Positions 6,040 through 20,048 of a DNA stretch of 25,326 bases are shown here, piece after piece. Position 1 is the stretch's first letter. Each line of letters starts with the position of its first letter. The position numbers were made by a program, and so were the translations under genes. The notes beneath the pieces are model-generated. The model did no database searches and had not been told where the DNA came from. It worked only from the letters and a program-made list of their open reading frames with translations. The stretch comes from Candidatus Woesearchaeota archaeon (GTDB lineage: Archaea; Nanobdellota; Nanobdellia; SCGC-AAA011-G17; GW2011-AR17), in assembly GCA_964522895.1 (NCBI GenBank), contig CAZFZD010000002.1, positions 1-25,326 on the forward strand, read 5' to 3'.

Positions 6040-7426
6040 TATTGCAATAGTCTTGGCAGTATTCCTGCTTTCCATAGTGCCATTGCTGAGAACCAACCAT
6101 TCTTTTGCAGGCGAAGAAGCATACATGCTGCTGAGGATGGCAGAAAACCAAGGATTTTATGATGCATTGAGTTTTGGAGGCAGGTTCGCGCCTTATGCTC
6201 TGGGAACGGCTTCCATACTAAAGCCCAATCCTGAACTTCTAGGCTATGCATTGCCTTTCATAGCTGGTATGCTTTGCCTCTTATTGTTTCTGGGAATCTT
6301 GAAAAAGTTTGAGATTAAGGAAAGAGGCCTGGCAATAATTTTGTTTGTGCTTTCCCCTTCTTTCATCTATCTCTTTGGCACCCTGAATCAGCTTCTGATG
6401 CCAGTTGTGATTGTGCTATTGGCTTTTTTCGTCATGCTGAGAGATGGAAAAATAAGCTATCTTTCCGTTCCGCTGTTTGCAATCCTTCCTTTCTTCAATT
6501 TCATAGTAACACTTATTGCCTTATTCATGGCTTTTCTTTTGGTACACTTTAAGTTAAAGGGGAAATCTGCAGTATTTTATTCAAGCCTTGGCCTTACATT
6601 GCTCACTGGATTGGGTTTCTTGGGTTATATCTATAAGAATGCTGGATTCGAAAGTTTGCTTTTCACTTACGGTAAAACTGGAATCAATGGCGCAGTACAA
6701 AGATTGTTTGCTGAGATGGGGGGCAAATATGGACTAAGCATCTTCGGCTCAATTCTTGCCATCTTCGGAATAATTAACAATTGGAAAAAGAAGTACAAGG
6801 ACCTGTTTGTTTTCTTTTCGGTTTTTGCCCTTTTCATTCTTATGCTTTTCAGAGTTGAAGCAATAATTTTTATGAATCTATTTATCGCTGTGTTTGCTGC
6901 GAAAGGATTTACCTATTTCCTCAATGCCAGATGGGAAGCGAAAAATCTGCGCTTTTTCATAATCTTAACATTCATCTGCGGTATCCTCTTCATTACAGCA
7001 GCAGAAGAGAACCGCATAATAGATGAAAATCCTAATCTTGCTATGATTGAAGGGATGGAATTTTTAGAAAAACTTCCAAGCGGAACTGTCTTTTCAGATT
7101 ATAGTCGTGGTTTCTGGATAAATTATGCAGGAAAAACAAATGTTATGGACAGCAACTTTAAGTTTGCCCCTGATGTCAATGAAAGATGGAAAGACAGCCA
7201 AACATTATTCTTTACCAGAGACTGGAAAACTGCAAAAAGCATAATTGAAAAATACGAAATAAAGTATGTCTGGATTGATGAAATGCTCAAGCAAAAAATA
7301 TGGAATGATGAGGTTGAAGGGCTCCTTTTCCTTGCAAAATACGGCAAAAATCTAAAGAAGGTTTATGACAATACAGATATGCATGAAGAAATGGGCGTCA
7401 GGATCTGGGAATTTCAGGAAGAATAA
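6005..7426 (+). CDS. polytopic membrane protein, STT3/AglB-like GT-C homolog with a degenerate WWDYG motif (paralog 2)
   Basis: Start placed at ATG 6005 (MKKRKYTRYYV...). It overlaps the upstream gene by 35 nt. The architecture matches the upstream gene: GEEAYMLLRMAE, SFGGRF (upstream gene: SYGGRY), TVFS-DYSRG-FWINYAGKTNVMDSNFKFAPD, and KYEIKYVWIDE (upstream gene: KYSVDYIYLSE). Confidence 0.55.
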   Translation: MKKRKYTRYYVSIAIVLAVFLLSIVPLLRTNHSFAGEEAYMLLRMAENQGFYDALSFGGRFAPYALGTASILKPNPELLGYALPFIAGMLCLLLFLGILKKFEIKERGLAIILFVLSPSFIYLFGTLNQLLMPVVIVLLAFFVMLRDGKISYLSVPLFAILPFFNFIVTLIALFMAFLLVHFKLKGKSAVFYSSLGLTLLTGLGFLGYIYKNAGFESLLFTYGKTGINGAVQRLFAEMGGKYGLSIFGSILAIFGIINNWKKKYKDLFVFFSVFALFILMLFRVEAIIFMNLFIAVFAAKGFTYFLNARWEAKNLRFFIILTFICGILFITAAEENRIIDENPNLAMIEGMEFLEKLPSGTVFSDYSRGFWINYAGKTNVMDSNFKFAPDVNERWKDSQTLFFTRDWKTAKSIIEKYEIKYVWIDEMLKQKIWNDEVEGLLFLAKYGKNLKKVYDNTDMHEEMGVRIWEFQEE

Positions 7427-7428
7427 AA

Positions 7429-8694
7429 ATGCAAATTACAATAACCAGCATAGCAATATGGATTGTTTATGTATTATCATTATTCTTTCTCACATTCTGG
7501 CTTTTGACATTTCTTGAAAAAGGCTTGAAAGATAAGAAACAGAAACTGGATTCTTTTCCAAAAGTTACTGTGAGTGTTCCTGCATACAATGAAGAAGAGG
7601 GCCTGGCAGAAACTGTGAATTCAATATTGGCTCTTGATTATCCCAGGGATAAAGTGGAAATTATCATTGTCAATGACTGTTCCAAGGATAATACGAGAAA
7701 AGTTGCTGAACAGTTGAAAAAAGATAATGCTAACAGAGACATAAAGATAATCAACCATAAAACTAATCTTGGAAAAGGCAGGGGCATGAATAATGCGCTT
7801 AAGCTTGCAAATGGAGAATTCTTCGTGTGCCTTGATGCTGATTCTGTAATCCAGCCTAATGCATTGAAAAAGATGGTTCCTGTGTTCAAGGACAAAAAGG
7901 TTTCAACAGTGCTCCCATTGATGAAAGTGAAGAACCCCAAGGGCATGTTAGGAAAACTGCAATGGTGCGAATATCTCATAAACTTGTTTTATAAAGGAAT
8001 AATGGGCAAGGTAGACTGCATACATGTGTCGCCCGGACCTTTCAGCATATACAGAAAAGAAGCATTAGATAAGGTCGGAGGATTTGATGAGAATAATCTT
8101 ACTGAAGACTTAGAGATCACATTAAGAATGCAGAAAGCCAATTACAAGATTGTACAACTGCTTAATACTGTCGTTTACACTAGAGTTCCCCTTACCTGGA
8201 AAGGTTTTTATAAGCAAAGAAACAGATGGTATAAAGGCACAATGATTAACATGTTCGGATACAAGGACCTTTTACTAAATAAGAAATACGGTGATTTCGG
8301 CATCATACAAATGCCAAAAATCCTATTATCAGGATTCATAGCGGTCTTTGTGTTTTTTCTCATATTGTATCATCTCATAAGACCGCTTTTCATGTGGATC
8401 TATAATTCAACTTTTGTAAATTTCAATCTTGATGTGATGATTGCAAATTTTTACAATACTATAACTAATTTCAATCTTTTAGACCTCAATTACACCAACA
8501 TAATCTTCGGCGCAACAAGCATCATACTGGCCTTAATAATATTAAAACTGGCATTCAAATATACGCAAGAGCGGTACTCAAATCAAGGGTGGCTTTCTGT
8601 GCCGGCTTATTTGATACTTTACGGAATAATTGCTTCAGGCATCTGGCTGGGAGTTTTTATTGACTTAATATTCAGGAGGATACAAAAATGGTAA
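7429..8694 (+). CDS. family 2 glycosyltransferase, processive synthase type (PgaC/NodC/chitin- or cellulose-synthase-like), membrane-integrated
   Basis: N-terminal TM, then VSVPAYNEEE...IIVNDCSKDNT, DAD (VCLDADSV), TED (NLTEDLEITLRMQ) and QxxRW (YKQRNRWYKG), followed by several C-terminal TM helices. Confidence 0.8.
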   Translation: MQITITSIAIWIVYVLSLFFLTFWLLTFLEKGLKDKKQKLDSFPKVTVSVPAYNEEEGLAETVNSILALDYPRDKVEIIIVNDCSKDNTRKVAEQLKKDNANRDIKIINHKTNLGKGRGMNNALKLANGEFFVCLDADSVIQPNALKKMVPVFKDKKVSTVLPLMKVKNPKGMLGKLQWCEYLINLFYKGIMGKVDCIHVSPGPFSIYRKEALDKVGGFDENNLTEDLEITLRMQKANYKIVQLLNTVVYTRVPLTWKGFYKQRNRWYKGTMINMFGYKDLLLNKKYGDFGIIQMPKILLSGFIAVFVFFLILYHLIRPLFMWIYNSTFVNFNLDVMIANFYNTITNFNLLDLNYTNIIFGATSIILALIILKLAFKYTQERYSNQGWLSVPAYLILYGIIASGIWLGVFIDLIFRRIQKW

Positions 8695-13078: not shown

Positions 13079-14233
13079 ATGAGATTCAAAGAAGTTTATC
13101 TGGACAATGGAGCCACTACCAAAATAGACCCTAAAGCGCTTGAAGCCATGAGGCCATATTTTGAAAAGTATTACGGCAATCCGTCTTCCATACACACTTT
13201 TGGAGAAAAGGCCGGCGAAGGGCTAGAGAAGGCGAGAAAGATAATCGCAAAATCAATCAATGCAAAACCTGAAGAGATATATTTCACTTCAGGAGGCACT
13301 GAATCGAACAATCTGGCCCTGAAAGGCATTGCATTCGCAAACAAGGATAAGAATCACATCATTACAACAAAAGTTGAGCACAAGTCTGTCATCAACACCT
13401 GCAAGTGGCTGGAGAAGCAGGGCTTTAAGGTTAGCTATCTGAGCGTGGACAAGGAAGGGTTTGTTGATCCTGAAGAGCTCAAATCTGCAATCACCCCAGA
13501 AACTTTGATGTTCAGCGTAATCCACGGCAACAACGAAATAGGTACAATAAATAATTTGGAAGCATTAGGCAAGCTGTGCAAAGAAGCAGGCATAGAGTTC
13601 CATACTGATGCTTGCCAAAGCTATACGAAAACTGAGATAGATGTTGAAAAGCAAAATCTCAGCATGGTCACGTTAAACTCGCATAAGATTCATGGGCCTA
13701 AAGGCGTTGGCGCATTATACATAAGAAAGGGACTAAAGCTTGAGCCTTGGCAGCACGGCGGCAACCATGAAAAAGGCATGAGATCTGGAACAGAAAACGT
13801 GCACGGCATTGTGGGGTTTGCAGAAGCTGTGAAGCTTGGCATGAACAAGAAGCACGTGAAAACGATGGCTGAACTCAGGGACAGGCTTATTGAAGGCGTA
13901 TTAAAGATTCCTGATACAAAGCTCAACGGGCCCAATGGGGAAAAAAGATTGTGCAACAATGCAAATTTCTCCTTTTTAGCAATCGAAGGCGAGGCAATTG
14001 GAGGCTACCTAAATCAGAAGATGGTGGCAAGCTCTACAGGCTCTGCTTGTTCTGCAAAGACGCTGCAGCCAAGCTATGTGCTAAAGGCGATTGGACTTAC
14101 AGATGAGGAAGCCAATGGCAGCCTGAGGCTTACATTGAGCAGGTTCACAACAGAAGAAGAAATTGATTATGTTGTAAAGGTCCTGCCCAAGATAGTAAGC
14201 AAGCTAAGAAGATTCTCGCCCTTGACAAGTTAG
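13079..14233 (+). CDS. iscS: cysteine desulfurase (NifS/IscS family, PLP-dependent)
   Basis: YLDNGATT, FTSGGTESNN, PLP-lysine block LNSHKIHGPKGVGALY, MRSGTENV and active-site SSTGSACS. Length is 384 aa. Confidence 0.9.
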   Translation: MRFKEVYLDNGATTKIDPKALEAMRPYFEKYYGNPSSIHTFGEKAGEGLEKARKIIAKSINAKPEEIYFTSGGTESNNLALKGIAFANKDKNHIITTKVEHKSVINTCKWLEKQGFKVSYLSVDKEGFVDPEELKSAITPETLMFSVIHGNNEIGTINNLEALGKLCKEAGIEFHTDACQSYTKTEIDVEKQNLSMVTLNSHKIHGPKGVGALYIRKGLKLEPWQHGGNHEKGMRSGTENVHGIVGFAEAVKLGMNKKHVKTMAELRDRLIEGVLKIPDTKLNGPNGEKRLCNNANFSFLAIEGEAIGGYLNQKMVASSTGSACSAKTLQPSYVLKAIGLTDEEANGSLRLTLSRFTTEEEIDYVVKVLPKIVSKLRRFSPLTS

Positions 14234-15063
14234 AATATTTTTTTCAATACTTTAATTCTTGCATCATAATCCAATGAGAACCTGAAGATATTCCAAAAAA
14301 CCTTTTGCAACCAAGCAATCCATTCCTCATCATAGACATCATAATAAATCCTTTTGCTCTTTTCCATCTCATAAGATTTAAAATTTTTCTCTTCTACCTT
14401 AAACTGTGCAAAGCTATCATCTATTATGGCTCCTCTTAAGGGCTGATAACAATGCCTTATTTCAATAAGGTTGGGATATTTTTTGATTAATGGCAAAAGT
14501 TGATTGATATTCCTTATGGAAGAAAAAGTTATTCTCGATAAGATTTTAAGAGAGACCTTCCTTTGGAGAAGTTCTTCCATAACAGATAAAACTTTTTTAC
14601 CATTCTCTTCAATATTAGTAAAGGATAAATTGCCTGAGAAAAAAAGGATTTGGTTTTTTGCCTTCTTCATATTTGAAATCAAATTTTGATTATGCGGCAA
14701 TTCATCTTCATGATAATCTTCCACAGAGGCCTTTTTCTTCTCTTCAGGAATAAACTGGTAAATCTCCATGAAATCAAAATCTTCTTTTCTCCTTCCCAAT
14801 TTGATTTGCTCATAAAAATTCTCTTTCAAATCATCAGTGTGCATCGATTCTGCATGATTGTAGAATACAATCTTCAAGGCTCCTTGAGTCCCTTTTCTGA
14901 AAGTCTTTATGTCTAAGCGGCCGGTTTGGCTTTTTATCTGCTTTACATAAGAGTCTGCCGTGAGCCAGCTTTTCTTTATGAGCTTAGAAATTTCCTGTAC
15001 TGTCTTAGGCTCAGCTTTTACAAAATTGATTATTTTCTTGATATCCTGTTCTCTCAGCACCAT
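14230..15063 (-). CDS. hypothetical protein, possible winged-HTH regulator with a degenerate PLD-like C-terminal domain (TrmB-like architecture)
   Basis: The N-terminus KTVQEISKLIKKSWLTADSYVKQI...ALKIVFYN looks like a wHTH. The C-terminus ILFFSGNLS...IEIRHCYQPLRGAIIDD resembles degenerate HKD/PLD-like repeats. The gene is divergent from the radical SAM operon. The call is weak. Confidence 0.3.
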   Translation of the reverse strand: MVLREQDIKKIINFVKAEPKTVQEISKLIKKSWLTADSYVKQIKSQTGRLDIKTFRKGTQGALKIVFYNHAESMHTDDLKENFYEQIKLGRRKEDFDFMEIYQFIPEEKKKASVEDYHEDELPHNQNLISNMKKAKNQILFFSGNLSFTNIEENGKKVLSVMEELLQRKVSLKILSRITFSSIRNINQLLPLIKKYPNLIEIRHCYQPLRGAIIDDSFAQFKVEEKNFKSYEMEKSKRIYYDVYDEEWIAWLQKVFWNIFRFSLDYDARIKVLKKIF

Positions 15064-15086
15064 TTTATATAAGGAAACATAAGGAG

Positions 15087-15094
15087 TTTAAATA
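15087..15094 (-). promoter_or_regulatory. TATA-box-like element for the 14230..15063 gene
   Basis: TTTAAATA lies 24 nt upstream of the ATG at 15063. Confidence 0.35.
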
Positions 15095-15171
15095 ATTTAT
15101 TAAACAATGTTATAAAAAAATTGAACTTAAGCTTATATCTAATTAAACACTATACTGTATTGGGTGATATC

Positions 15172-15462
15172 ATGATTAGAGGGATAGGCATTGACGGCGT
15201 CGTATCTGAAATAGGATGCTTGACAAAGAGTGATAGATTTATTGCTAAAAGGGAAGAATTGACAAAAAGCCTGATGCGCAGGTATAAGGCTGAAGACCTT
15301 GAAGCTGAAAGAGCCATAAATCATGCGATAGATTGTGGAGCCATATACCAAGAAGGCAGCAATATATGCCTAAGCATGGAAACAAACGAAAACTTGTTAG
15401 AAAAGATTTGCCCTTTCTGCGGTAAGGCCTTGAATTACAAGAAAGAAGATTATAACGAATAA
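15172..15462 (+). CDS. small (96 aa) Cys-containing protein, first gene of the radical SAM operon; function unknown
   Basis: I prefer ATG 15172 (MIRGIGIDGV...) over the TTG at 15121 because the SD-like GGTGAT at 15163..15168 precedes it. It has five Cys, including a C-terminal CPFC. Its stop is 3 nt before the radical SAM start. Confidence 0.45.
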   Translation: MIRGIGIDGVVSEIGCLTKSDRFIAKREELTKSLMRRYKAEDLEAERAINHAIDCGAIYQEGSNICLSMETNENLLEKICPFCGKALNYKKEDYNE

Positions 15463-15465
15463 AAA

Positions 15466-16737
15466 ATGATTTCAAACATAGTAAAGATAGAAAAAGAAAA
15501 GGACTGTTATGTGCTTTTCAACAAGAGAGGCATGGTGCTTGAACTAAGCCCTGAAGAATACAGCACCTTCAAGAAATACGGAAAGCAGAAAAATTTTCCT
15601 AAGAGGCATAGGGAATTTTTCAACAAACTGTGCAATTATGAAATGACTGACTTCCAGGATTATCAAGCTAAAGATGCAAAGAAAGACTATTCAAAAAGGC
15701 TGCTCCATCATGATTCTGCTGATCCAGTTTTTAAGGCTCCAATCATAGCACACTTGGGCATAACGCAAAGATGCAACATGCGCTGCAGATACTGTTCTGT
15801 CAGGGAACCTTACGAGAGTATGAAGGAACTTTCAACAGAGGAATGGAAAAAAATAATCAAAAATATTGCCGAGCTTGGAGTTTTTCAGATAGGCTTCACA
15901 GGAGGAGAACCAACATTAAGAGAGGATTTGATTGAACTTGCAGAATATGTCAACAGCTTAAACTGTACTTTTAATCTGACAACGAACTGCTGGCACCTCA
16001 GTGAAGAAATGATTGCCAAGCTAAAGAAAGCAGGCATGAGGCAATGCCAGGTATCATTAGACAGCCATTTGCCTGAAGTTAACGACAAACTCAGAACCGA
16101 AGGCAGTTGCAAAAAGGTGCAAAAAGCCATAAGGCTGCTTAGGAAACATAATATAACTGTGGGCATAGACTGCGTTGTTTCAAACAATAACATAAGGCAT
16201 ATAGAAAGCTTTGTGGAATGGCTGGGAAAAGAAAATGTGCCCTTTCTTACACTGATAAAAATCAAGCAGGGAGATTTGGCTCTAAGCTTATTCAAGGAAC
16301 TGCTGCCTCCTTATGAAAAATACAGCAGGCTTATTGAAAAGCTTTGCAGCAGGGAAAATAAAAATCCAAACATAACAATAGACTGCGGTTCAGTGAGCAA
16401 CCTGCAATATTCATTGAAAGAGGAAGATTTGCATAAGATACCTGTTGCAGGCTGTCCAGCAGGGCATACATTATTGTCCATCTCTCCAAACGGAGACATG
16501 TATCCGTGCGTGGCCCTAGGGCAGGATGAATTCAAGATAGGCAATGCGCTGAAAGATGATCTGAAAAAGCTGTGGCAAAAAAGCAAAGTCCTTAGAGAAC
16601 TTAGGCAGGTTAAATCAAAAGTAAGCGGAAAATGCAGGGATTGCGACAGGCTGGACTACTGCAGGGGCGGATGCAGAGGGATAGCATACTCGCTTTACCA
16701 TAATCTGTGGGAAGCAGATAAAACATGTAGGAGGTGA
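15466..16737 (+). CDS. radical SAM enzyme with a C-terminal SPASM domain and a ~95-aa N-terminal extension (possible RiPP recognition element)
   Basis: CX3CX2C at C103/C107/C110 (GITQRCNMRCRYCSV) and GGEPTL. The SPASM signature is CPAGHTLLSISPNGDMYPC (Cx12Gx4C) plus CRDCDRLDYCRGGC (Cx2Cx5Cx3C). The N-terminal CYVLFNKRGMVLELSPEEYSTFKKY resembles PqqD-like RRE strands and helix. Confidence 0.85.
   Translation: MISNIVKIEKEKDCYVLFNKRGMVLELSPEEYSTFKKYGKQKNFPKRHREFFNKLCNYEMTDFQDYQAKDAKKDYSKRLLHHDSADPVFKAPIIAHLGITQRCNMRCRYCSVREPYESMKELSTEEWKKIIKNIAELGVFQIGFTGGEPTLREDLIELAEYVNSLNCTFNLTTNCWHLSEEMIAKLKKAGMRQCQVSLDSHLPEVNDKLRTEGSCKKVQKAIRLLRKHNITVGIDCVVSNNNIRHIESFVEWLGKENVPFLTLIKIKQGDLALSLFKELLPPYEKYSRLIEKLCSRENKNPNITIDCGSVSNLQYSLKEEDLHKIPVAGCPAGHTLLSISPNGDMYPCVALGQDEFKIGNALKDDLKKLWQKSKVLRELRQVKSKVSGKCRDCDRLDYCRGGCRGIAYSLYHNLWEADKTCRR
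16729..16737 (+). promoter_or_regulatory. Shine-Dalgarno site for the 21-codon ORF
   Basis: AGGAGGTGA forms the last two codons plus the stop of the upstream radical SAM gene. It is followed by a 4-nt spacer and the ATG at 16742. It is complementary to the conserved archaeal/bacterial 16S 3' end (CCUCC core). Confidence 0.6.
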
Positions 16738-16741
16738 AACT

Positions 16742-16807
16742 ATGGAAATAAGAGCTGACGTCTTTATGAGCGGGCATTATGCTTATTTTTGCGAGCTGCC
16801 TTGCTAA
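16742..16807 (+). CDS. 21-aa candidate precursor peptide MEIRADVFMSGHYAYFCELPC
   Basis: Read by hand: ATG GAA ATA AGA GCT GAC GTC TTT ATG AGC GGG CAT TAT GCT TAT TTT TGC GAG CTG CCT TGC TAA. It is not in the ORF track because it is too short. It has a strong SD site, sits between two radical SAM/SPASM genes, and has an aromatic/Cys-rich C-terminal half. Confidence 0.5.
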   Translation: MEIRADVFMSGHYAYFCELPC

Positions 16808-16821
16808 ATATATGGATAAGC

Positions 16822-16849
16822 AGAATTAAAAAAATTCTTTTTTTATTTT
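16822..16849 (+). terminator. hairpin plus T-tract, possible attenuator or partial terminator after the peptide ORF
   Basis: AGAATT (16822..16827) pairs with AATTCT (16833..16838) across a 5-nt A loop. The following TTTTTTTATTTT tract resembles the oligo-T signals at which archaeal RNA polymerase terminates. Confidence 0.3.
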
Positions 16850-16865
16850 AACCAAGGGAGGAAAA

Positions 16866-17846
16866 ATGGAAAGGAGACTAGTTGAAGTGGCTTTCGAGGT
16901 CACCTACAAATGCAACCTGAGATGCAGACACTGCTATAACAGGAAAAATCTCAGCAATAAAGAAGAAATGGAAACAAGAGAGGTTTTCAAGGCATTAGAG
17001 ATAATAAGGAGATTCGGTGCAGAGAAAGTCAAGTTCGGGGGAGGAGAACCGCTAACAAGAAGAGACTTCTTTGAAATATTAAATCATGCAAATGGGCTAG
17101 GTTTTGAGACCAATTTTTCAAGCAATGGACTATTAATTCAAAAAAATCTACAGGAAATTGTGGCTGCAGGAATGAAAAGAGTGCAGATCAGCCTTGATAG
17201 TGTCGGCGAGAAACATGACACAGCAAGAAATTACAAGGGCCTGTTCAAGATAGTTGAAAATTCAGCAAGAATCCTCAAGGAAAAAGGCATAAAAGTTGAT
17301 TTCGCCACCACATTAACAAGAAACAATCATCGTGATTTTAATTTAATTCTTGATTTCTGCAAGAGAAACAATGCAAGAAGATGGCGGATAATGAAATACA
17401 TCCCTTATGGGATTGAAGATAAACTGATGCTCACTAAAAAGGAATATAAGGCAGCTATAGAAAGTATCCTGAAACTTAAAGGAGAGACAAAAGAACCAGA
17501 AATAATAGTCGCAAGGGAATTTGACCTGATAAGGGATAAAAAAGACTACAATGACATGCAGTGTTTCGGAGGCAAGAGCTTTTTCAGCCTGAAGGCAAAC
17601 GGAAATGTCACGCCCTGTTCCTACATAGACAACATAATATGTGGCAACATTCTCAGAGACAGAATTGAGGATATCTGGAATAACATAAGGATGGTTGAAT
17701 TCAGCAGGGACCACCATGATACAGGATGCGAATTTGCAGAAAAATGCAAGGGCGGTTGCAAGGCAGTATCCCTTCGCCTTGGAAAGAAAGTTCATTGTGA
17801 TCCTTACTGCTGGACAAAAATGTCTAGAAATTCTACAAGAGCTTAA
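16866..17846 (+). CDS. radical SAM enzyme with a SPASM/twitch-type C-terminal domain and no N-terminal extension
   Basis: SD GGGAGG at 16856..16861. CX3CX2C at C16/C20/C23 (TYKCNLRCRHCYN) and GGGEPLT. C-terminal CFGGKSFFSLKANGNVTPC (Cx12Gx4C), then DTGCEFAEKCKGGC (the first Cys of Cx2Cx5Cx3C is replaced by Asp), then CDPYC. Confidence 0.85.
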   Translation: MERRLVEVAFEVTYKCNLRCRHCYNRKNLSNKEEMETREVFKALEIIRRFGAEKVKFGGGEPLTRRDFFEILNHANGLGFETNFSSNGLLIQKNLQEIVAAGMKRVQISLDSVGEKHDTARNYKGLFKIVENSARILKEKGIKVDFATTLTRNNHRDFNLILDFCKRNNARRWRIMKYIPYGIEDKLMLTKKEYKAAIESILKLKGETKEPEIIVAREFDLIRDKKDYNDMQCFGGKSFFSLKANGNVTPCSYIDNIICGNILRDRIEDIWNNIRMVEFSRDHHDTGCEFAEKCKGGCKAVSLRLGKKVHCDPYCWTKMSRNSTRA

Positions 17847-17913
17847 GGAAAGATTTATAAACAAACATCTTTTCCTTGTAATAACAAATTTTTGTTTTAT
17901 TGGAGGAAACACA

Positions 17914-18141
17914 ATGGAAAGTACAGACAGGCCATTAGACGCATTAAACAATGCACGAAACCAAAGAGTCATAGTAGAACTGAAAAACAAGGCACAAGTT
18001 ACCGGCAAGCTGAAAGCATTCGACATACATATCAATGTTGTTCTGGAAGAAGCTGAAGAGCTTGAAAACGGCGAATTGAAAAGAAAATTAGGAACCACAT
18101 TCATCCGTGGCGACATGATAGTAATCATATCACCTGCATAA
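17914..18141 (+). CDS. Sm-like (LSm/SmAP) archaeal protein
   Basis: Start at ATG 17914, preceded by GGAGG (17902..17906). RPLDALNNARNQRVIVELKNKAQVTGKLKAFDIHINVVLEEAEELENGE...KLGTTFIRGDMIVIISP gives the Sm1 and Sm2 motifs. The conserved archaeal Sm-L37e gene pair is present. Confidence 0.9.
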   Translation: MESTDRPLDALNNARNQRVIVELKNKAQVTGKLKAFDIHINVVLEEAEELENGELKRKLGTTFIRGDMIVIISPA

Positions 18142-18156
18142 AGGTTTTTTTAGAAA

Positions 18157-18342
18157 ATGACAAAAGGCGCAGCATCAATGGGTAAAAAATCCGGTAAGGA
18201 TATACATATCCGTTGCAGAAGATGTGGAAGAGCAAGTTATCACAAGATTGACGGAGTCTGTTCTTCTTGCGGTTACGGCAGAAGCAAAAAGATGCGCAAA
18301 TACAATTGGCAGAAACCGGAAAAAAGGCCCACCAAACGCTGA
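18157..18342 (+). CDS. rpl37e: 50S ribosomal protein L37e
   Basis: GKKSGKDIHIRCRRCGRASYHKIDGVCSSCGYGRSKKMRKYNW contains a C4 zinc ribbon typical of L37e. Length is 61 aa. Confidence 0.92.
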   Translation: MTKGAASMGKKSGKDIHIRCRRCGRASYHKIDGVCSSCGYGRSKKMRKYNWQKPEKRPTKR

Positions 18343-18354
18343 ATTCTTTAGACT

Positions 18355-18996
18355 ATGAAAGACCTTAGCATCTTGCTTAATAAATATTTTGACAGCAAAA
18401 AGCTTAATCCTGAAGAGCAAAGACTAATAGATGAATACAGGCTTGATTGCATTCTTGAGGCAAATTGTCCTGATTTTACGCACCCTTACACAGCCTATAG
18501 CTATAACCTGCCCATATATCTTAAGCTGGCACAGTCACATACTGATTTTGAAAGCATATTAAAGAAAGAGCTGAAAAACAGAAAACTTATCGAGCTGGGC
18601 CCGGGTGCAAATCCGCAGGCAGAATGGGCACTAAAATACGGCATAAAAGAATATGTCGGAGTAGAGCCTTTTAATTCTGAAATCTCAGCAAAGGCTCTTC
18701 CCAAAGATCAAAAGCTTAGCATAGAGCCATGCAAGGAAGCGCTGCATTATCTGCTTGGAGTTGAAGAATCAAGTTCAGTAGTGATAAGCATGGGCATGAT
18801 GTGCGAAGAGGTTTATCATTTCAGCAACAAGGACTATTATAAGTTCCTAATTAAAGAGATTGCAAGGGTAACTCCAAAAGGTGCGCCAACAATCCACATA
18901 AATGGACCCCATAACAGTTTTGCAGAATATTTCAGGCAATTCGGATTCAAGGCCCTGGAAGGCCTCTTGGGAGACGCAATTTTCATAAAACAATAA
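18355..18996 (+). CDS. hypothetical protein, possibly a class I SAM-dependent methyltransferase fold
   Basis: Motif-I-like LIELGPGANP, an acidic residue after the next strand (YVGVEPF), and VVISMGMM. The assignment is weak. Confidence 0.3.
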   Translation: MKDLSILLNKYFDSKKLNPEEQRLIDEYRLDCILEANCPDFTHPYTAYSYNLPIYLKLAQSHTDFESILKKELKNRKLIELGPGANPQAEWALKYGIKEYVGVEPFNSEISAKALPKDQKLSIEPCKEALHYLLGVEESSSVVISMGMMCEEVYHFSNKDYYKFLIKEIARVTPKGAPTIHINGPHNSFAEYFRQFGFKALEGLLGDAIFIKQ

Positions 18997-19006: not shown

Positions 19007-19032
19007 GCCAATGTTACTTACTTTTTGCTTAT

Positions 19033-19116
19033 GCAGGGGTGCCGGAGCGGTCAAACGGGATGGGCTTAGGACCCATTGGCTTAGTGCCTTCGCAGGTTCG
19101 AATCCTGTCTCCTGCA
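19033..19116 (+). tRNA. tRNA-Leu (anticodon UAG), 84 nt, long variable arm, no encoded CCA
   Basis: Hand-folded. The acceptor GCAGGGG pairs with CTCCTGC and the discriminator is A. The anticodon stem ATGGG pairs with CCCAT around the loop C-T-TAG-G-A (U33, G37). The variable arm is GGC-TTAG-TGCC. The T arm is GCAGG-TTCGAAT-CCTGT. Confidence 0.9.
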
Positions 19117-19121
19117 TTTTT
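19117..19121 (+). terminator. oligo-T termination signal after tRNA-Leu
   Basis: TTTTT follows the discriminator base immediately. Confidence 0.35.
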
Positions 19122-19208: not shown

Positions 19209-20048
19209 ATGTTAAATAAAATTATCAAAAAAGCCAAGAAAATTGTCCCAGCATTAGCACTTGCAGGAATGGCTTATATGCCAGCAAATGCAAAAGCTGA
19301 CTGGGGAGATAAGGTAACTAATCCAAAATCCGAAATTGTAGTTACTCTTGGCCAAAAAAATGAAGAGCTTATGGGAAGACCTTTCTCAAAAGGCCCAAAG
19401 ATTGAGATGCACGGAAAGGGAAGGCTAAAGTTCAATGAGGTTTCTGGCTTGAAGCTTGAAGGAAGGCTTAATCTTGAAAACCTTGCTTATGAGAATTTTG
19501 ATGGAAGGAACCAAAGAACAGAGCTTGAAACAAATGGCATCTTTGAAGTTTATTTCAACAATTCGCCTAACTTAACATTCAAATCAGGTTTTGGTGTTGA
19601 TCTTGATTTTAACCATACAATAGAAAGGATTGAAAACACAAAAGTAAAATCAAGCAATATAACTGTAGGGCCAGCATTGACAGGCAACATGGATTCAAAG
19701 TATGTTGATTTTGATGTTCTAGTAAGCGCGGGTTTCGGAGAAGCAGGAAACGGCGTCCGCGGAAGAGGGCTTGCGATAAAGCCTAAGCTGCAAAGCGAAT
19801 TGGATATTGACTTAAGGCCTGTAAATGTGCCGCTTAACCTAGAAGGCATAGGAGAGATTGAAGTTACTGTTTTGGAAACAGAAAATACTTCAAGAAACGA
19901 ATATAATCTTAAGGCTGGCGCAAGATTGAATTATGAGGTATATGACAACACTTCAATAACTCTTGATTACAGCCATACATGGCATTACGGGAATCAGGAC
20001 AATGTCAGCTCAGATAATTTATCTGCTGGTTTAAAATACGAATTTTAA
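19209..20048 (+). CDS. secreted protein with outer-membrane beta-barrel (OMP/porin)-like features
   Basis: Signal peptide MLNKIIKKAKKIVPALALAGMAYMPANAKA|D. It has many amphipathic alternating strands (LKLEGRLNLENLAY, GIFEVYFNN, LTFKSGFGVDLDF, YVDFDVLVSAGFG, YNLKAGARLNYEVY, SITLDYSHTWHYG). The C-terminus is SAGLKYEF with a terminal Phe. Confidence 0.5.
   Translation: MLNKIIKKAKKIVPALALAGMAYMPANAKADWGDKVTNPKSEIVVTLGQKNEELMGRPFSKGPKIEMHGKGRLKFNEVSGLKLEGRLNLENLAYENFDGRNQRTELETNGIFEVYFNNSPNLTFKSGFGVDLDFNHTIERIENTKVKSSNITVGPALTGNMDSKYVDFDVLVSAGFGEAGNGVRGRGLAIKPKLQSELDIDLRPVNVPLNLEGIGEIEVTVLETENTSRNEYNLKAGARLNYEVYDNTSITLDYSHTWHYGNQDNVSSDNLSAGLKYEF

Follow-up and report, generated by a model that had tools for sequence, protein, structure and literature searches.

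A three-gene cassette with two radical SAM/SPASM enzymes that probably matures a short conserved peptide in a woesearchaeotal archaeon

The 25,326-nt window analysed here contains a three-gene cassette, comprising a gene for a 21-residue peptide and the genes for two radical SAM (rSAM) enzymes (hereafter designated rSAM-A and rSAM-B), which probably matures a ribosomally made peptide and constitutes a new family, "new" being meant relative to Pfam and NCBIfam models and the searchable literature. The initial annotation had proposed a RiPP or peptide-derived-cofactor operon, and both the conserved, co-inherited peptide and the RRE-like enzyme fold support this proposal. Found in organisms ranging from tiny archaeal symbionts to bacteria of the gut, the peptide with its two rSAMs would mark an uncharacterised family of enzyme-modified peptides. 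The four co-directional ORFs described for the region are all present at the coordinates given below, with gaps of 3, 4, and 58 nt, and lie, as had been noted, among core translation genes (S8e upstream, LSm and L37e downstream); eRF1 in the genomic context confirms that the organism is an archaeon. The features are as follows.

14230..15063, minus strand: divergent TrmBL2-like 277-aa protein (AF2 model, Foldseek)
15172..15462, plus strand: 96-aa ORF upstream of rSAM-A (ATG start; 113 aa if TTG at 15121)
15466..16737, plus strand: rSAM-A, 423-aa radical SAM/SPASM enzyme (Pfam, structure model, orthologues)
15466..15645, plus strand: N-terminal segment of rSAM-A, putative RiPP recognition element (predicted fold)
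16730..16737, plus strand: Shine-Dalgarno-like GGAGGTGA (direct sequence reading)
16742..16807, plus strand: precursor-like peptide gene, 21 aa, MEIRADVFMSGHYAYFCELPC (motif conservation, codon statistics, profile search)
16838..16849, plus strand: T-run TTTTTTTATTTT 3' of the peptide ORF (direct sequence reading)
16866..17846, plus strand: rSAM-B, 326-aa partner radical SAM enzyme (Pfam, cysteine conservation)

Conservation of the small ORF in homologous neighbourhoods, at first a point to be checked, was found throughout. Thus, the motif x9-G-H-Y-[A/C/S]-[Y/F]-[F/Y/L]-x-[E/R]-L-P-x-R adjoins the rSAM-A orthologue in 33/33 loci (non-redundant loci with the relevant flanking sequence present), which span DPANN archaea, a CPR bacterium, Clostridia, and Bacilli, and it gave 0 matches in control loci carrying distant rSAM/SPASM genes (97 loci, 946 kb). 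The median distance from the rSAM-A stop codon to the peptide is 3 nt across loci, and 32 of the 33 have a strong GGAGG-type Shine-Dalgarno sequence ahead of the peptide start; in the window, the Shine-Dalgarno-like GGAGGTGA is located 4 nt 5' of the peptide ATG and overlaps the rSAM-A stop codon. Variability in the peptide ORF was 0.56 at the third codon position versus 0.29 and 0.21 at the other two, and synonymous to nonsynonymous changes stood at ~1:1 in frame versus ~1:9 in shifted frames; these statistics indicate protein-level selection on the peptide. Judged from sequence, the 21-aa ORF is translated, and its peptide product is strongly conserved and strictly co-inherited with rSAM-A. 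A peptide profile retrieved 28 unnamed proteins of 24–72 aa (E ≤ 6e-6; 5.8e9 sequences searched), and neither Pfam and NCBIfam models nor the searchable literature yielded a description of the peptide.

Within the peptide, only G11, H12, and L19 are invariant, position 14 is occupied by A, C, or S throughout, and residue 18 is Glu here and Arg in bacteria. Residues 1–9 are a putative leader and residues 10–20 (S-G-H-Y-A-Y-F-C-E-L-P) a putative core, and the C-terminal tails of the archaeal peptides are variable. No family member is shorter than the window's peptide, in which both the near-invariant Arg22 and the tail are missing, so that this copy could be impaired. It had been described as a tiny Cys/aromatic-rich peptide; the peptide itself is borne out, but its richness in Cys is incidental, since its two Cys residues are not conserved.

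The ORF was left out by the gene callers in this genome, and it is separated by 4 nt from rSAM-A on its 5' side and by 58 nt from rSAM-B on its 3' side, with a T-run behind it, an arrangement that would also suit a translational-coupling or attenuation device (upstream ORF), or a chance ORF, with a functionless product. We consider this highly improbable, as conservation across domains extends beyond position to the amino-acid sequence, with a strong preference for synonymous changes. Moreover, the gene order in bacterial loci is partner rSAM, rSAM-A, and peptide, followed by a hairpin, and the peptide ORF, being the last gene of the operon there, is thus more than an upstream ORF for rSAM-B; in another locus (L020), where the order also differs, the peptide precedes the partner gene. 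The chance-ORF version is further opposed by the lack of motif matches in the control loci. The conservation, gene-order, and control-locus data thus contradict both versions. The T-run TTTTTTTATTTT between the peptide gene and rSAM-B may act as an archaeal termination/attenuation signal, a candidate role read from its sequence; T-rich stretches also occur 3' of the peptide ORF in two further loci (L002 and L014), and region 16838..16849 showed no significant RNA structure and no match in a terminator scan.

That the peptide is a substrate for maturation, the reading we favour, is consistent with the properties of rSAM-A. The 423-aa enzyme had been assigned a CX3CX2C motif and a full SPASM domain; indeed, it exceeds the Pfam thresholds (Radical_SAM, 103.6 bits; SPASM, 44.4 bits), and the Fe-S cysteines of CX3CX2C (C103/C107/C110) and all eight of SPASM (C307, C330, C348, C390, C393, C399, C403, and C421) are invariant in 32 orthologues; orthologues from archaea and bacteria are 41–70% identical along their entire length. 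Its AF2 model (pLDDT 86) has a beta-beta-beta-alpha-alpha arrangement at residues 5–57 (strands 5–11, 14–19, and 24–27; helices 29–38 and 46–57; pLDDT 79–92). The enzyme models as an N-terminal RRE-like domain (about aa 1–60), a radical SAM core, and a full SPASM domain, and the putative N-terminal beta3-alpha2 domain, an assignment backed by structural alignment to the RRE-bearing maturases SuiB and CteB along their whole length, would bind the N-terminal leader of the peptide; the Pfam PqqD model gave no sequence-level match in rSAM-A. The best Foldseek matches were SuiB (5v1t; E 1.9e-16, TM 0.66, full length) and CteB (5why), the best PDB sequence matches PqqE (E 1.9e-28) and SuiB, and the best NCBIfam matches the peptide maturases GeoRSP, MftC, WgkB, PqqE, and ScmE; ChlB, the sole triceptide synthase in the PDB, was distant (28.5 bits). 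The SuiB structure has been solved with its peptide.

rSAM-B, which has no RRE, also exceeds the Pfam thresholds (Radical_SAM, 99.6 bits; SPASM, 38.6 bits), with CX3CX2C at C16/C20/C23 and an SPASM-type C-terminus in which 6–7 cysteines are kept (C233, C251, C288, C294, C298, C311, and C315); the first Cys of the CX2C motif is missing, in agreement with the "partial SPASM" first ascribed to the 326-aa enzyme. It belongs to an archaeal partner group (B0; 14 members). Wherever the contig allows, an SPASM-type partner rSAM adjoins rSAM-A, except for one locus with a truncated remnant. The partners form three divergent groups that resemble one another no more closely than they resemble rSAM-A; the partners may therefore differ in job between loci. 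Their nearest curated relatives, far below cutoff, are the tetrapyrrole enzymes AhbD and NirJ2.

This relationship, the nucleotide-metabolism accessory genes in many loci (AAA_28/dTMP-kinase-like, CYTH, His_Phos, Ham1, DCD-like, and NUDIX regulators), and weak matches of both enzymes to prokaryotic viperin models could mean that the rSAMs have a small-molecule substrate (tetrapyrrole, nucleotide, or cofactor precursor), with the peptide as an accessory subunit, scaffold, or regulator. Such a role is unlikely, however, given scores of 146–184 against the AhbD cutoff of 500 and 82 against the viperin cutoff of 180, the RRE-type N-terminal domain of rSAM-A with its full-length likeness to peptide maturases, and the fact that the nucleotide-type genes are not universal and in archaea track the TrmBL2-like gene, not the cassette. 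Also against this role, viral contigs contained no orthologues and no membership in a defence library was found. Grouping with non-peptide radical SAM enzymes, raised at the outset as the contrary outcome, was not seen in the HMM comparison: models for AhbC/AhbD/NirJ, sulfatase maturases, and tungsten-cofactor maturases scored 88–146 bits with the two enzymes, versus cutoffs of 349–650. Neither enzyme reached the curated family cutoffs for PQQ, mycofactocin, AhbD/NirJ, sacti/ranthipeptide, or viperin.

The peptide is inherited with rSAM-A and a second SPASM rSAM across DPANN archaea, CPR bacteria, and Firmicutes; the system is thus not confined to DPANN, as CPR bacteria, Clostridia, and Bacilli also have it. 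Its distribution is patchy: a scan of 185,579 species genomes for exact sequence patterns, which sets a lower bound, found it in at least 31. This patchy spread and an integrase near the cassette in one locus (L001) are as compatible with a mobile accessory trait as with a housekeeping function. The 96-aa ORF, initially counted as an operon member, has no counterpart in related loci (tblastn, 52 loci), only 14 relatives in 1.84e9 representative proteins, and no match in Pfam, NCBIfam, or PADLOC; it is probably a real small gene of a rare family and no conserved component of the system. The divergent gene product combines an N-terminal wHTH with a PLD-like C-terminal domain (AF2 pLDDT 87.6); Foldseek gave TrmBL2 (5bpd; E 1.2e-8) as its best match and PLD-family Nuc/NucT for the C-terminal domain. 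Its family exceeds 500 clusters. The gene is a conserved neighbour in archaea, transcribed away from the cassette in 14 loci, but L053 and L055 have it beside other cassettes and L054 beside none. Thus, the protein may regulate the operon, as had been surmised, but it is not dedicated to it, since it also flanks unrelated cassettes.

Thioether chemistry is excluded by the lack of a conserved Cys in the peptide, which rules out the sactipeptide or ranthipeptide first considered. The most likely chemistry, for which we infer modification, site, and product alike, is that of a His-centred cross-linked peptide. Presumably, the amphipathic N-terminus (residues 1–9, M-E-V-R-A-D-K-F-L or similar) would be the leader and, in beta-strand form, dock onto the N-terminal recognition domain that is fused to rSAM-A; the enzyme would cleave SAM reductively, abstract a hydrogen atom in the core, and form a carbon-carbon (or C-N/C-O) cross-link within G11-H12-Y13-[A/C/S]14-[Y/F]15-[F/Y/L]16. 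The likeliest cross-link centre would be the invariant His12, for example with His-C2 joined to the C-beta of residue 14, which is always small, following a three-residue cyclophane pattern; H12-Y13-[A/C/S]14 corresponds to the triceptide motifs of His-X-small type, HAA and HAS (PMC11499958, PMC12912966). rSAM-B would add a second modification, for example at the aromatic-X-X triplet starting at residue 15, the SPASM auxiliary clusters would take care of the second electron, and the product would be a small, rigid cross-linked peptide.

The same maturation could instead yield a secreted RiPP, either an antimicrobial or a symbiont-host or inter-microbial signal, the kind to which most characterised rSAM-modified peptides belong (reviews PMC8326336 and PMC5682303). 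The patchy, HGT-like archaeal and bacterial spread, the variable archaeal tails, the integrase in L001, and a lineage-specific HExxH protein 3' of the peptide in Clostridia, which could be a processing protease, are in line with this role; nonetheless, we regard it as possible but rather doubtful. Family-wide, there is no conserved transporter, immunity gene, or leader peptidase, and the core is near-invariant between domains while the enzyme is only 41–48% identical, which is unusual for conflict molecules. In addition, the adjacent regulators (NUDIX/NrtR-type in bacteria and TrmBL2-like in archaea) are of the metabolite- or nucleotide-sensing type. For these reasons, namely the near-invariant core in two domains of life, the lack of a conserved exporter, immunity gene, or protease in the neighbourhoods, and the type of regulator, the product looks more like a housekeeping or cofactor-type (SCIFF-like) intracellular molecule than a variable bacteriocin; no enzyme that would be the client of a cofactor turned up.

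Among known systems, PQQ (PqqA, PqqE, and PqqD) likewise has a very short conserved peptide beside an SPASM enzyme and no exporter, provides the precedent for a peptide-derived cofactor, and includes the top PDB sequence match of rSAM-A. However, TIGR02109 scored 150 versus a cutoff of 381, PqqD is separate whereas the RRE is fused here, PqqB, PqqC, and PqqF are absent from every neighbourhood, and there is no conserved Glu-X3-Tyr pair, because Glu18 is Arg in bacteria. Mycofactocin (MftA/MftB/MftC), a redox-cofactor precedent, shares an SPASM maturase with a small conserved peptide, and MftC is the second-best NCBIfam match of rSAM-A (157.8 versus a cutoff of 265), but the peptide here lacks the C-terminal Gly-Val-Tyr, and MftB, MftD, MftE, and MftF genes are missing. 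SCIFF/ScfB in Clostridia pairs a small, highly conserved peptide of housekeeping appearance with a dedicated rSAM/SPASM maturase that forms Cys thioethers, and to our knowledge SCIFF systems have neither exporter nor immunity gene. The present cassette resembles it in all these respects except that it has no conserved Cys, employs two enzymes, and is also present in archaea and CPR bacteria; TIGR03974, the model for the SCIFF maturase, matched the Clostridial partner enzyme only weakly (85.7 bits, cutoff 425). In the sactipeptide clusters of thuricin CD and ruminococcin C, two radical SAM enzymes are encoded together and act jointly (PMC12093266, PMC8188230), as would be the case here. Those clusters differ in having Cys-dependent sactionine bridges, longer variable bacteriocin precursors, and export and immunity genes. 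Streptide (StrA/SuiA with StrB/SuiB) is alike in the RRE, radical SAM core, and SPASM domain with two auxiliary clusters, in the adjacent short precursor gene, in SuiB being the best structural match to rSAM-A, and, as proposed here, in a carbon-carbon cross-link that involves an aromatic ring and no Cys. It differs in that identity is only ~18–19%, the KxxxW motif and a StrC-type transporter/protease are missing here, and the second rSAM and cross-domain spread are found only here. Finally, the present motifs occur as single copies, not repeats, with two different rSAMs and weak similarity to ChlB, in contrast to triceptides, whose investigators have catalogued ~3900 pathways; radical SAM/SPASM enzymes are nevertheless common to both. 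The triceptide enzymes HaaB, HtkB, YhhB, and MicB act on the His motifs HAA, HTK, HNR, and HAS, and H12-Y13-[A/C/S]14, with a second aromatic-X-X triplet at residues 15–17, fits the aromatic-X-X motif and the known cross-links of His-C2 to the C-beta of Ala/Ser (PMC11499958, PMC12912966).

The four co-directional ORFs reported in the initial annotation were confirmed at their positions in the window, with intergenic gaps of 3, 4, and 58 nt. They are listed here together with the ribosome-binding sequence of the peptide.

15172–15462, + strand: 96-aa ORF, upstream of rSAM-A
15466–16737, + strand: rSAM-A, a 423-aa radical SAM/SPASM enzyme passing the Pfam Radical_SAM and SPASM thresholds
16730–16737, + strand: Shine-Dalgarno-type sequence GGAGGTGA, preceding the peptide and overlapping the rSAM-A stop codon
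16742–16807, + strand: 21-aa peptide, MEIRADVFMSGHYAYFCELPC, beginning 4 nt after rSAM-A
16866–17846, + strand: rSAM-B, a 326-aa partner enzyme passing the Pfam Radical_SAM and SPASM thresholds

The window carries archaeal markers (eRF1, ribosomal proteins S8e and L37e, and LSm), and the nearest relatives of all the window genes examined belong to Nanoarchaeota and Woesearchaeota MAGs. An Rfam search over positions 14800–18400 gave only a chance lncRNA match, and neither the promoter and terminator scan nor RNA folding of the spacer between the peptide and rSAM-B gave anything above shuffles. Elsewhere in the window, a tRNA-Leu with the anticodon TAG (19032–19117, +) is the sole tRNA, and a 279-aa ORF (19209–20048, +) with a signal-peptide-like N-terminus matches the outer-membrane beta-barrel domain OMP_b-brl of Pfam (33.7 bits; cutoff, 28.7), which is odd for an archaeal contig.

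A small ORF of the same pattern was found directly 3′ of the rSAM-A homologue in every neighbourhood fetched, at increasing distance. A scan for exact sequence patterns in which each species was represented by one genome, the count of which is a lower bound, identified at least 31 loci with full-length rSAM-A orthologues (41–70% identity) in Nanoarchaeota, Woesearchaeota, Pacearchaeota, a CPR bacterium (Portnoybacteria), Clostridia, and Bacilli. Of these loci, 29 have the motif G-H-x2-[YFWH]-[YFLW]-x2-L-P; one of the two remaining loci ends at a contig edge, and the other has a peptide with L-V for L-P. After removal of duplicates, the peptide was found in every one of the 33 non-redundant orthologous loci that include the flank, whereas the same regular expression gave no match in the 946-kb six-frame translation of 97 control loci, which encode distant radical SAM/SPASM relatives only. 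The short ORF that had been proposed to accompany the maturase is thus co-inherited with it and kept in the homologous neighbourhoods.

The rSAM-A stop codon and the peptide start are separated by a median gap of 3 nt, and a GGAGG-type Shine-Dalgarno sequence precedes 32 of the 33 peptide ORFs. Pairwise differences among the peptide genes at codon positions 1, 2, and 3 were 0.29, 0.21, and 0.56, respectively, and synonymous and nonsynonymous codon differences stood at 1113:1200 in frame, the two out-of-frame counts being 215:2126 and 262:2013. These sequence features indicate that selection acts on the precursor peptide at the protein level and that it is in all probability translated. The bacterial loci are arranged as partner radical SAM enzyme, rSAM-A, peptide, and hairpin; since the peptide is the last gene there, its ORF is not just an upstream ORF for rSAM-B, and this explanation was ruled out.

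A search of 5.8 billion sequences with a peptide profile, derived from an alignment headed by a 50-aa family member, retrieved only 28 protein clusters (24–72 aa, all with E ≤ 6e-6), every one of them unnamed or designated ‘hypothetical’. A longer member of the family is MEVRADKFLSGHYAYFVELPERKEQ. The exact window peptide and the common Clostridial peptide are absent from a 15-billion-protein collection, never having been called as genes. Moreover, the peptide sequences matched no family in NCBIfam (June 2026) or Pfam, and the family, motif strings included, is not described in searchable full text, that is, outside survey supplements and subscription papers; it may have been entered earlier in a large genome-mining catalogue. 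For this family missed by gene callers, we propose GH-x2-[YF]-[FYL]-x2-LP as the annotation motif.

Residues G11, H12, and L19 of the peptide are invariant, and Y13 (31/33, with Met or Leu in two Bacilli), P20 (32/33), and R22 (28/33) are nearly so. Position 14 is always Ala, Cys, or Ser, position 15 is Tyr or Phe, and position 16 is Phe, Tyr, or Leu. Residues 1–9 constitute a conserved segment of alternating hydrophobic and polar residues, with the archaeal form M-E-V-R-A-D-K-F-L and the bacterial form M-K-V-I-V-S-K-M-A. Beyond L-P-x-R, the archaeal peptides bear a variable tail of 0–40 residues, and the bacterial ones end within one to three residues; the window peptide, ending in E-L-P-C without Arg22 and without a tail, is the shortest known copy. 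The initial annotation had described the peptide as Cys/aromatic-rich. The alignment contains no conserved Cys column, however, and Cys17 and Cys21 of the window peptide, lying at variable positions, are therefore incidental. Glu18 is not conserved. The archaeal tails frequently end with a Tyr in the final six residues, mostly as K-Y or E-Y (about 14 of 22 in a hand count of the sequences from loci L001, L008, L009, L011–L013, and L015 and protein entries P0121–P0148), which could be a second site for recognition or modification.

rSAM-A is conserved over its full length, including the first 90 residues, and its CX3CX2C motif and eight further SPASM cysteines are invariant in 32 orthologues. 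The AlphaFold2 model, built on 17 homologues (pLDDT 86; pTM 0.88), places three β-strands and two helices (residues 5–57) before the radical SAM barrel. The best structural match found by Foldseek was SuiB (E 1.9e-16, full-length alignment), the streptide maturase whose structure has been solved with its precursor peptide, followed by the sactipeptide maturase CteB and then by PqqE, anSME, and SkfB. Both SuiB and CteB bear an N-terminal RiPP recognition element (RRE), and the model predicts one in rSAM-A at the level of the fold only; Pfam PqqD was not detected by sequence. The top NCBIfam matches of rSAM-A are all peptide maturases (GeoRSP, MftC, WgkB, PqqE, and ScmE), each scoring far under its cutoff (GeoRSP, 165 against 400; MftC and PqqE are treated with their pathways below).

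A second SPASM-type radical SAM gene adjoins rSAM-A wherever the contig allows, except in the Pacearchaeota locus L004 (on the same contig as L033), where only some 40 residues of it are left directly after the peptide gene (remnant at 7424–7560: MKRSLFEVAWEITDGCNLECIHCYNP, followed by a stop codon); the partner appears to be pseudogenised there. rSAM-B itself is without an N-terminal extension, keeps CX3CX2C and 6–7 C-terminal cysteines, and scores far under the cutoffs of its best curated matches (GeoRSP, 157 against 400; AhbD, 145.5 against 500; NirJ2, 141.1 against 500). Three divergent groups of partners can be told apart, namely B0 from archaea, to which rSAM-B of the window belongs, B1 from bacteria, and B2, again from archaea; they are similar to one another at 116–165 bits, no higher than to rSAM-A; the role of the partner is therefore conserved, and its sequence is not. 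The N-terminal extension of the 420-aa Clostridial partner resembles that of rSAM-A, but hhalign gave no significant result, and an RRE in this partner was dropped.

The minimal conserved unit is the peptide, rSAM-A, and the partner radical SAM enzyme, and it is most economically read as a cassette that matures a ribosomal peptide. The RiPP-type operon originally suggested by a radical SAM/SPASM enzyme beside a tiny peptide is supported by the conserved, apparently translated, and co-inherited peptide and by the predicted RRE-type fold. A more exact description is that of a new, cross-domain family whose peptides have a Cys-free core centred on His and are putatively modified by radical SAM/SPASM enzymes.

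The 96-aa ORF, originally counted as a member of the system, does not belong to it, having a counterpart in none of the related loci; a role as precursor or chaperone was ruled out by the same absence. It is probably a real gene from a rare small-protein family, as a set of 1.84 billion representative proteins holds just 14 relatives. One of these (P0270) is 918 aa long and contains 12 repeats that match residues 59–85.

The divergent winged-helix (wHTH) gene (14230–15063, −; 277 aa), suggested earlier as a possible regulator, neighbours the cassette in 14 archaeal loci. Its model (pLDDT 87.6) gave TrmBL2 (5bpd, E 1.2e-8) as the top Foldseek match, with a wHTH and a PLD-like domain, the C-terminal domain matching Nuc/NucT; its sequence did not match the Pfam TrmB model. 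The wHTH and its conserved adjacency stand, but not its dedication to the cassette: the TrmBL2-like family comprises more than 500 clusters in Woesearchaeota, and its genes are also divergent beside unrelated cassettes, namely a dTMP-kinase-like gene, a 242-aa radical SAM enzyme, dCTP deaminase, AAA_28, and CYTH in locus L055, and a MiaB-like radical SAM enzyme, a kinase, and a His-phosphatase/NUDIX fusion in locus L053 (locus L054 has nothing obvious). A dedicated regulator was thus ruled out, and the TrmBL2-like protein may regulate the operon as a general factor. With their many genes for radical SAM enzymes and nucleotide metabolism, the surroundings of these genes have the look of a shared regulon or of a hotspot for variable cassettes. 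In the window, a NifS/IscS-type cysteine desulfurase gene (13079–14233, +; 503 bits against the NifS cutoff of 531) runs at its 3′ end 4 nt into the convergent TrmBL2-like gene. It could feed sulfur to the six Fe-S clusters of rSAM-A and rSAM-B, and is no conserved neighbour of the cassette in other loci.

In 12 bacterial loci and in CPR contigs, the cassette is preceded by a regulator with NUDIX and wHTH domains (NrtR/AraR-type). Recurrent, non-universal neighbours are AAA_28 or dTMP-kinase-like P-loop proteins, histidine phosphatase, Ham1, and a DCD-like protein; examples (L030, 4144–4758; L031, 2470–3024; L005, 3838–4983; L026, 1972–2568; L008, 1610–2752) include a 381-aa AAA_28 protein with a long C-terminal extension in L005, a histidine phosphatase between regulator and partner in Bacilli, Ham1 in Clostridia, and the DCD-like protein in an archaeon. 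Homologous Cys-rich proteins of 239–248 aa without a Pfam match, encoded directly upstream of the radical SAM genes in an archaeal (L008, 2775–3494) and a bacterial-type locus (L032, 3563–4309), may be extra accessory proteins. The HExxH protein C3 (215 aa) is confined to the Clostridial lineage and was rejected as a family-wide protease. The neighbourhoods of the family as a whole have no exporter, immunity gene, or protease in common.

These neighbourhoods bear on the role of the product. The patchy distribution of the cassette, suggestive of horizontal transfer, and the variable archaeal tails would suit a secreted signal or antimicrobial, which we keep under consideration. We are inclined to favour an intracellular role of a conserved kind, like that of a cofactor or of SCIFF, over a bacteriocin, because the core is near-invariant across two domains of life, export and immunity genes are lacking, and the regulators are of the metabolite-sensing type, all of which speak against secretion. 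A more far-reaching version of the intracellular role, which we regard as rather improbable, is that PQQ and mycofactocin would be joined by a third cofactor or metabolite derived from a peptide: a His-centred cross-linked unit would be excised from the ~20-residue peptide and shared horizontally among anaerobes with reduced genomes (DPANN archaea, CPR bacteria, and gut Firmicutes), its production being tied to nucleotide/ADP-ribose status through the NrtR-type (bacteria) and TrmBL2-type (archaea) regulators, along with the recurrent AAA_28, CYTH, NUDIX, and His-phosphatase neighbours.

The tiny genomes of DPANN and CPR organisms retain few accessory pathways. To our knowledge, radical SAM-modified peptides from archaea are almost unexplored, and those of DPANN or CPR organisms are not described in the searchable full-text literature. 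New here are a ~20-residue peptide with a core essentially invariant between archaea and bacteria and its pairing with two dedicated three-cluster iron-sulfur enzymes. The cassette would offer a new, directly testable substrate–enzyme pair for work on radical SAM reactions, which may include the anaerobic formation of His–aromatic cross-links. Its product would be a candidate for a conserved small molecule with a part in the life of gut Clostridia and of episymbionts, both archaeal and bacterial.

Known systems were compared with the cassette by curated models and by peptide sequence. Neither enzyme falls within AhbC/AhbD/NirJ, the tetrapyrrole enzymes named earlier as a non-peptide alternative; the equivalog cutoffs of 500 were missed by far (AhbD, 132.8 for rSAM-A and 145.5 for rSAM-B; NirJ2, 138.9 and 141.1; bacterial partners, at most 183.7). 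A defence system or prokaryotic viperin was likewise rejected: rSAM-B scored 81.9 with NF038283 (cutoff, 180), the PADLOC matches span only the generic radical SAM core shared with viperin, and no orthologue occurs on viral contigs. Glycyl-radical activases are not known as SPASM enzymes, and the likeness of S-G-H-Y to the glycyl-radical motif was therefore set aside. Among peptide pathways, sactipeptide and ranthipeptide chemistry is excluded as the conserved reaction, since the core has no conserved Cys donors; the maturase also missed the family cutoffs (StsB, 123.7 against 625; PapB, 99.4 against 340; SkfB, 95.3 against 300). The PQQ pathway was rejected on the TIGR02109 scores (150.4 for rSAM-A and 115.5 for rSAM-B; cutoff, 381), on the variable Glu18, with which the Glu-X3-Tyr of PqqA is not matched, and on the lack of PqqB/C/D/F genes in the neighbourhoods. 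Mycofactocin was rejected on the TIGR03962 score (157.8; cutoff, 265), on peptide C-termini that are variable or absent in place of Gly-Val-Tyr, and on the lack of MftB/D/E/F genes nearby.

His12 is the sole invariant reactive side chain of the peptide and residue 14 is always small, and a triceptide cross-link is therefore the closest documented chemistry. Triceptides are defined by an aromatic-X-X motif in the core (PMC11499958), and cross-links from His C2 to the C-β of the third residue are known for HAA, HAS, HTK, and HNR motifs (PMC11499958, PMC12912966). In the peptide, the (near-)invariant H12-Y13-[A/C/S]14 is followed by [Y/F]15-x-x, a resemblance of sequence pattern only. Presumably, residues 1–9 would serve as the leader, docking on the fused recognition domain of rSAM-A, and G-H-Y-[A/C/S]-[Y/F]-[F/Y/L] would be the core, receiving one modification per enzyme: a three-residue cyclophane from His12 C2 to the C-β of residue 14, and a second modification perhaps at the aromatic-X-X triplet of residues 15–17, which could be the target of the partner. 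Although this His-centred, triceptide-type chemistry is suggested by the peptide, rSAM-A is only weakly similar to the radical SAM domain of ChlB, the one triceptide synthase of solved structure (9gm3; 28.5 bits), its closest solved relatives by sequence being PqqE (102.6 bits) and SuiB (97.5 bits). Collectively, the cassette may be likened, with a putative modification, to the streptide/triceptide/PQQ class, that is, to the Cys-independent SPASM cross-linking systems.
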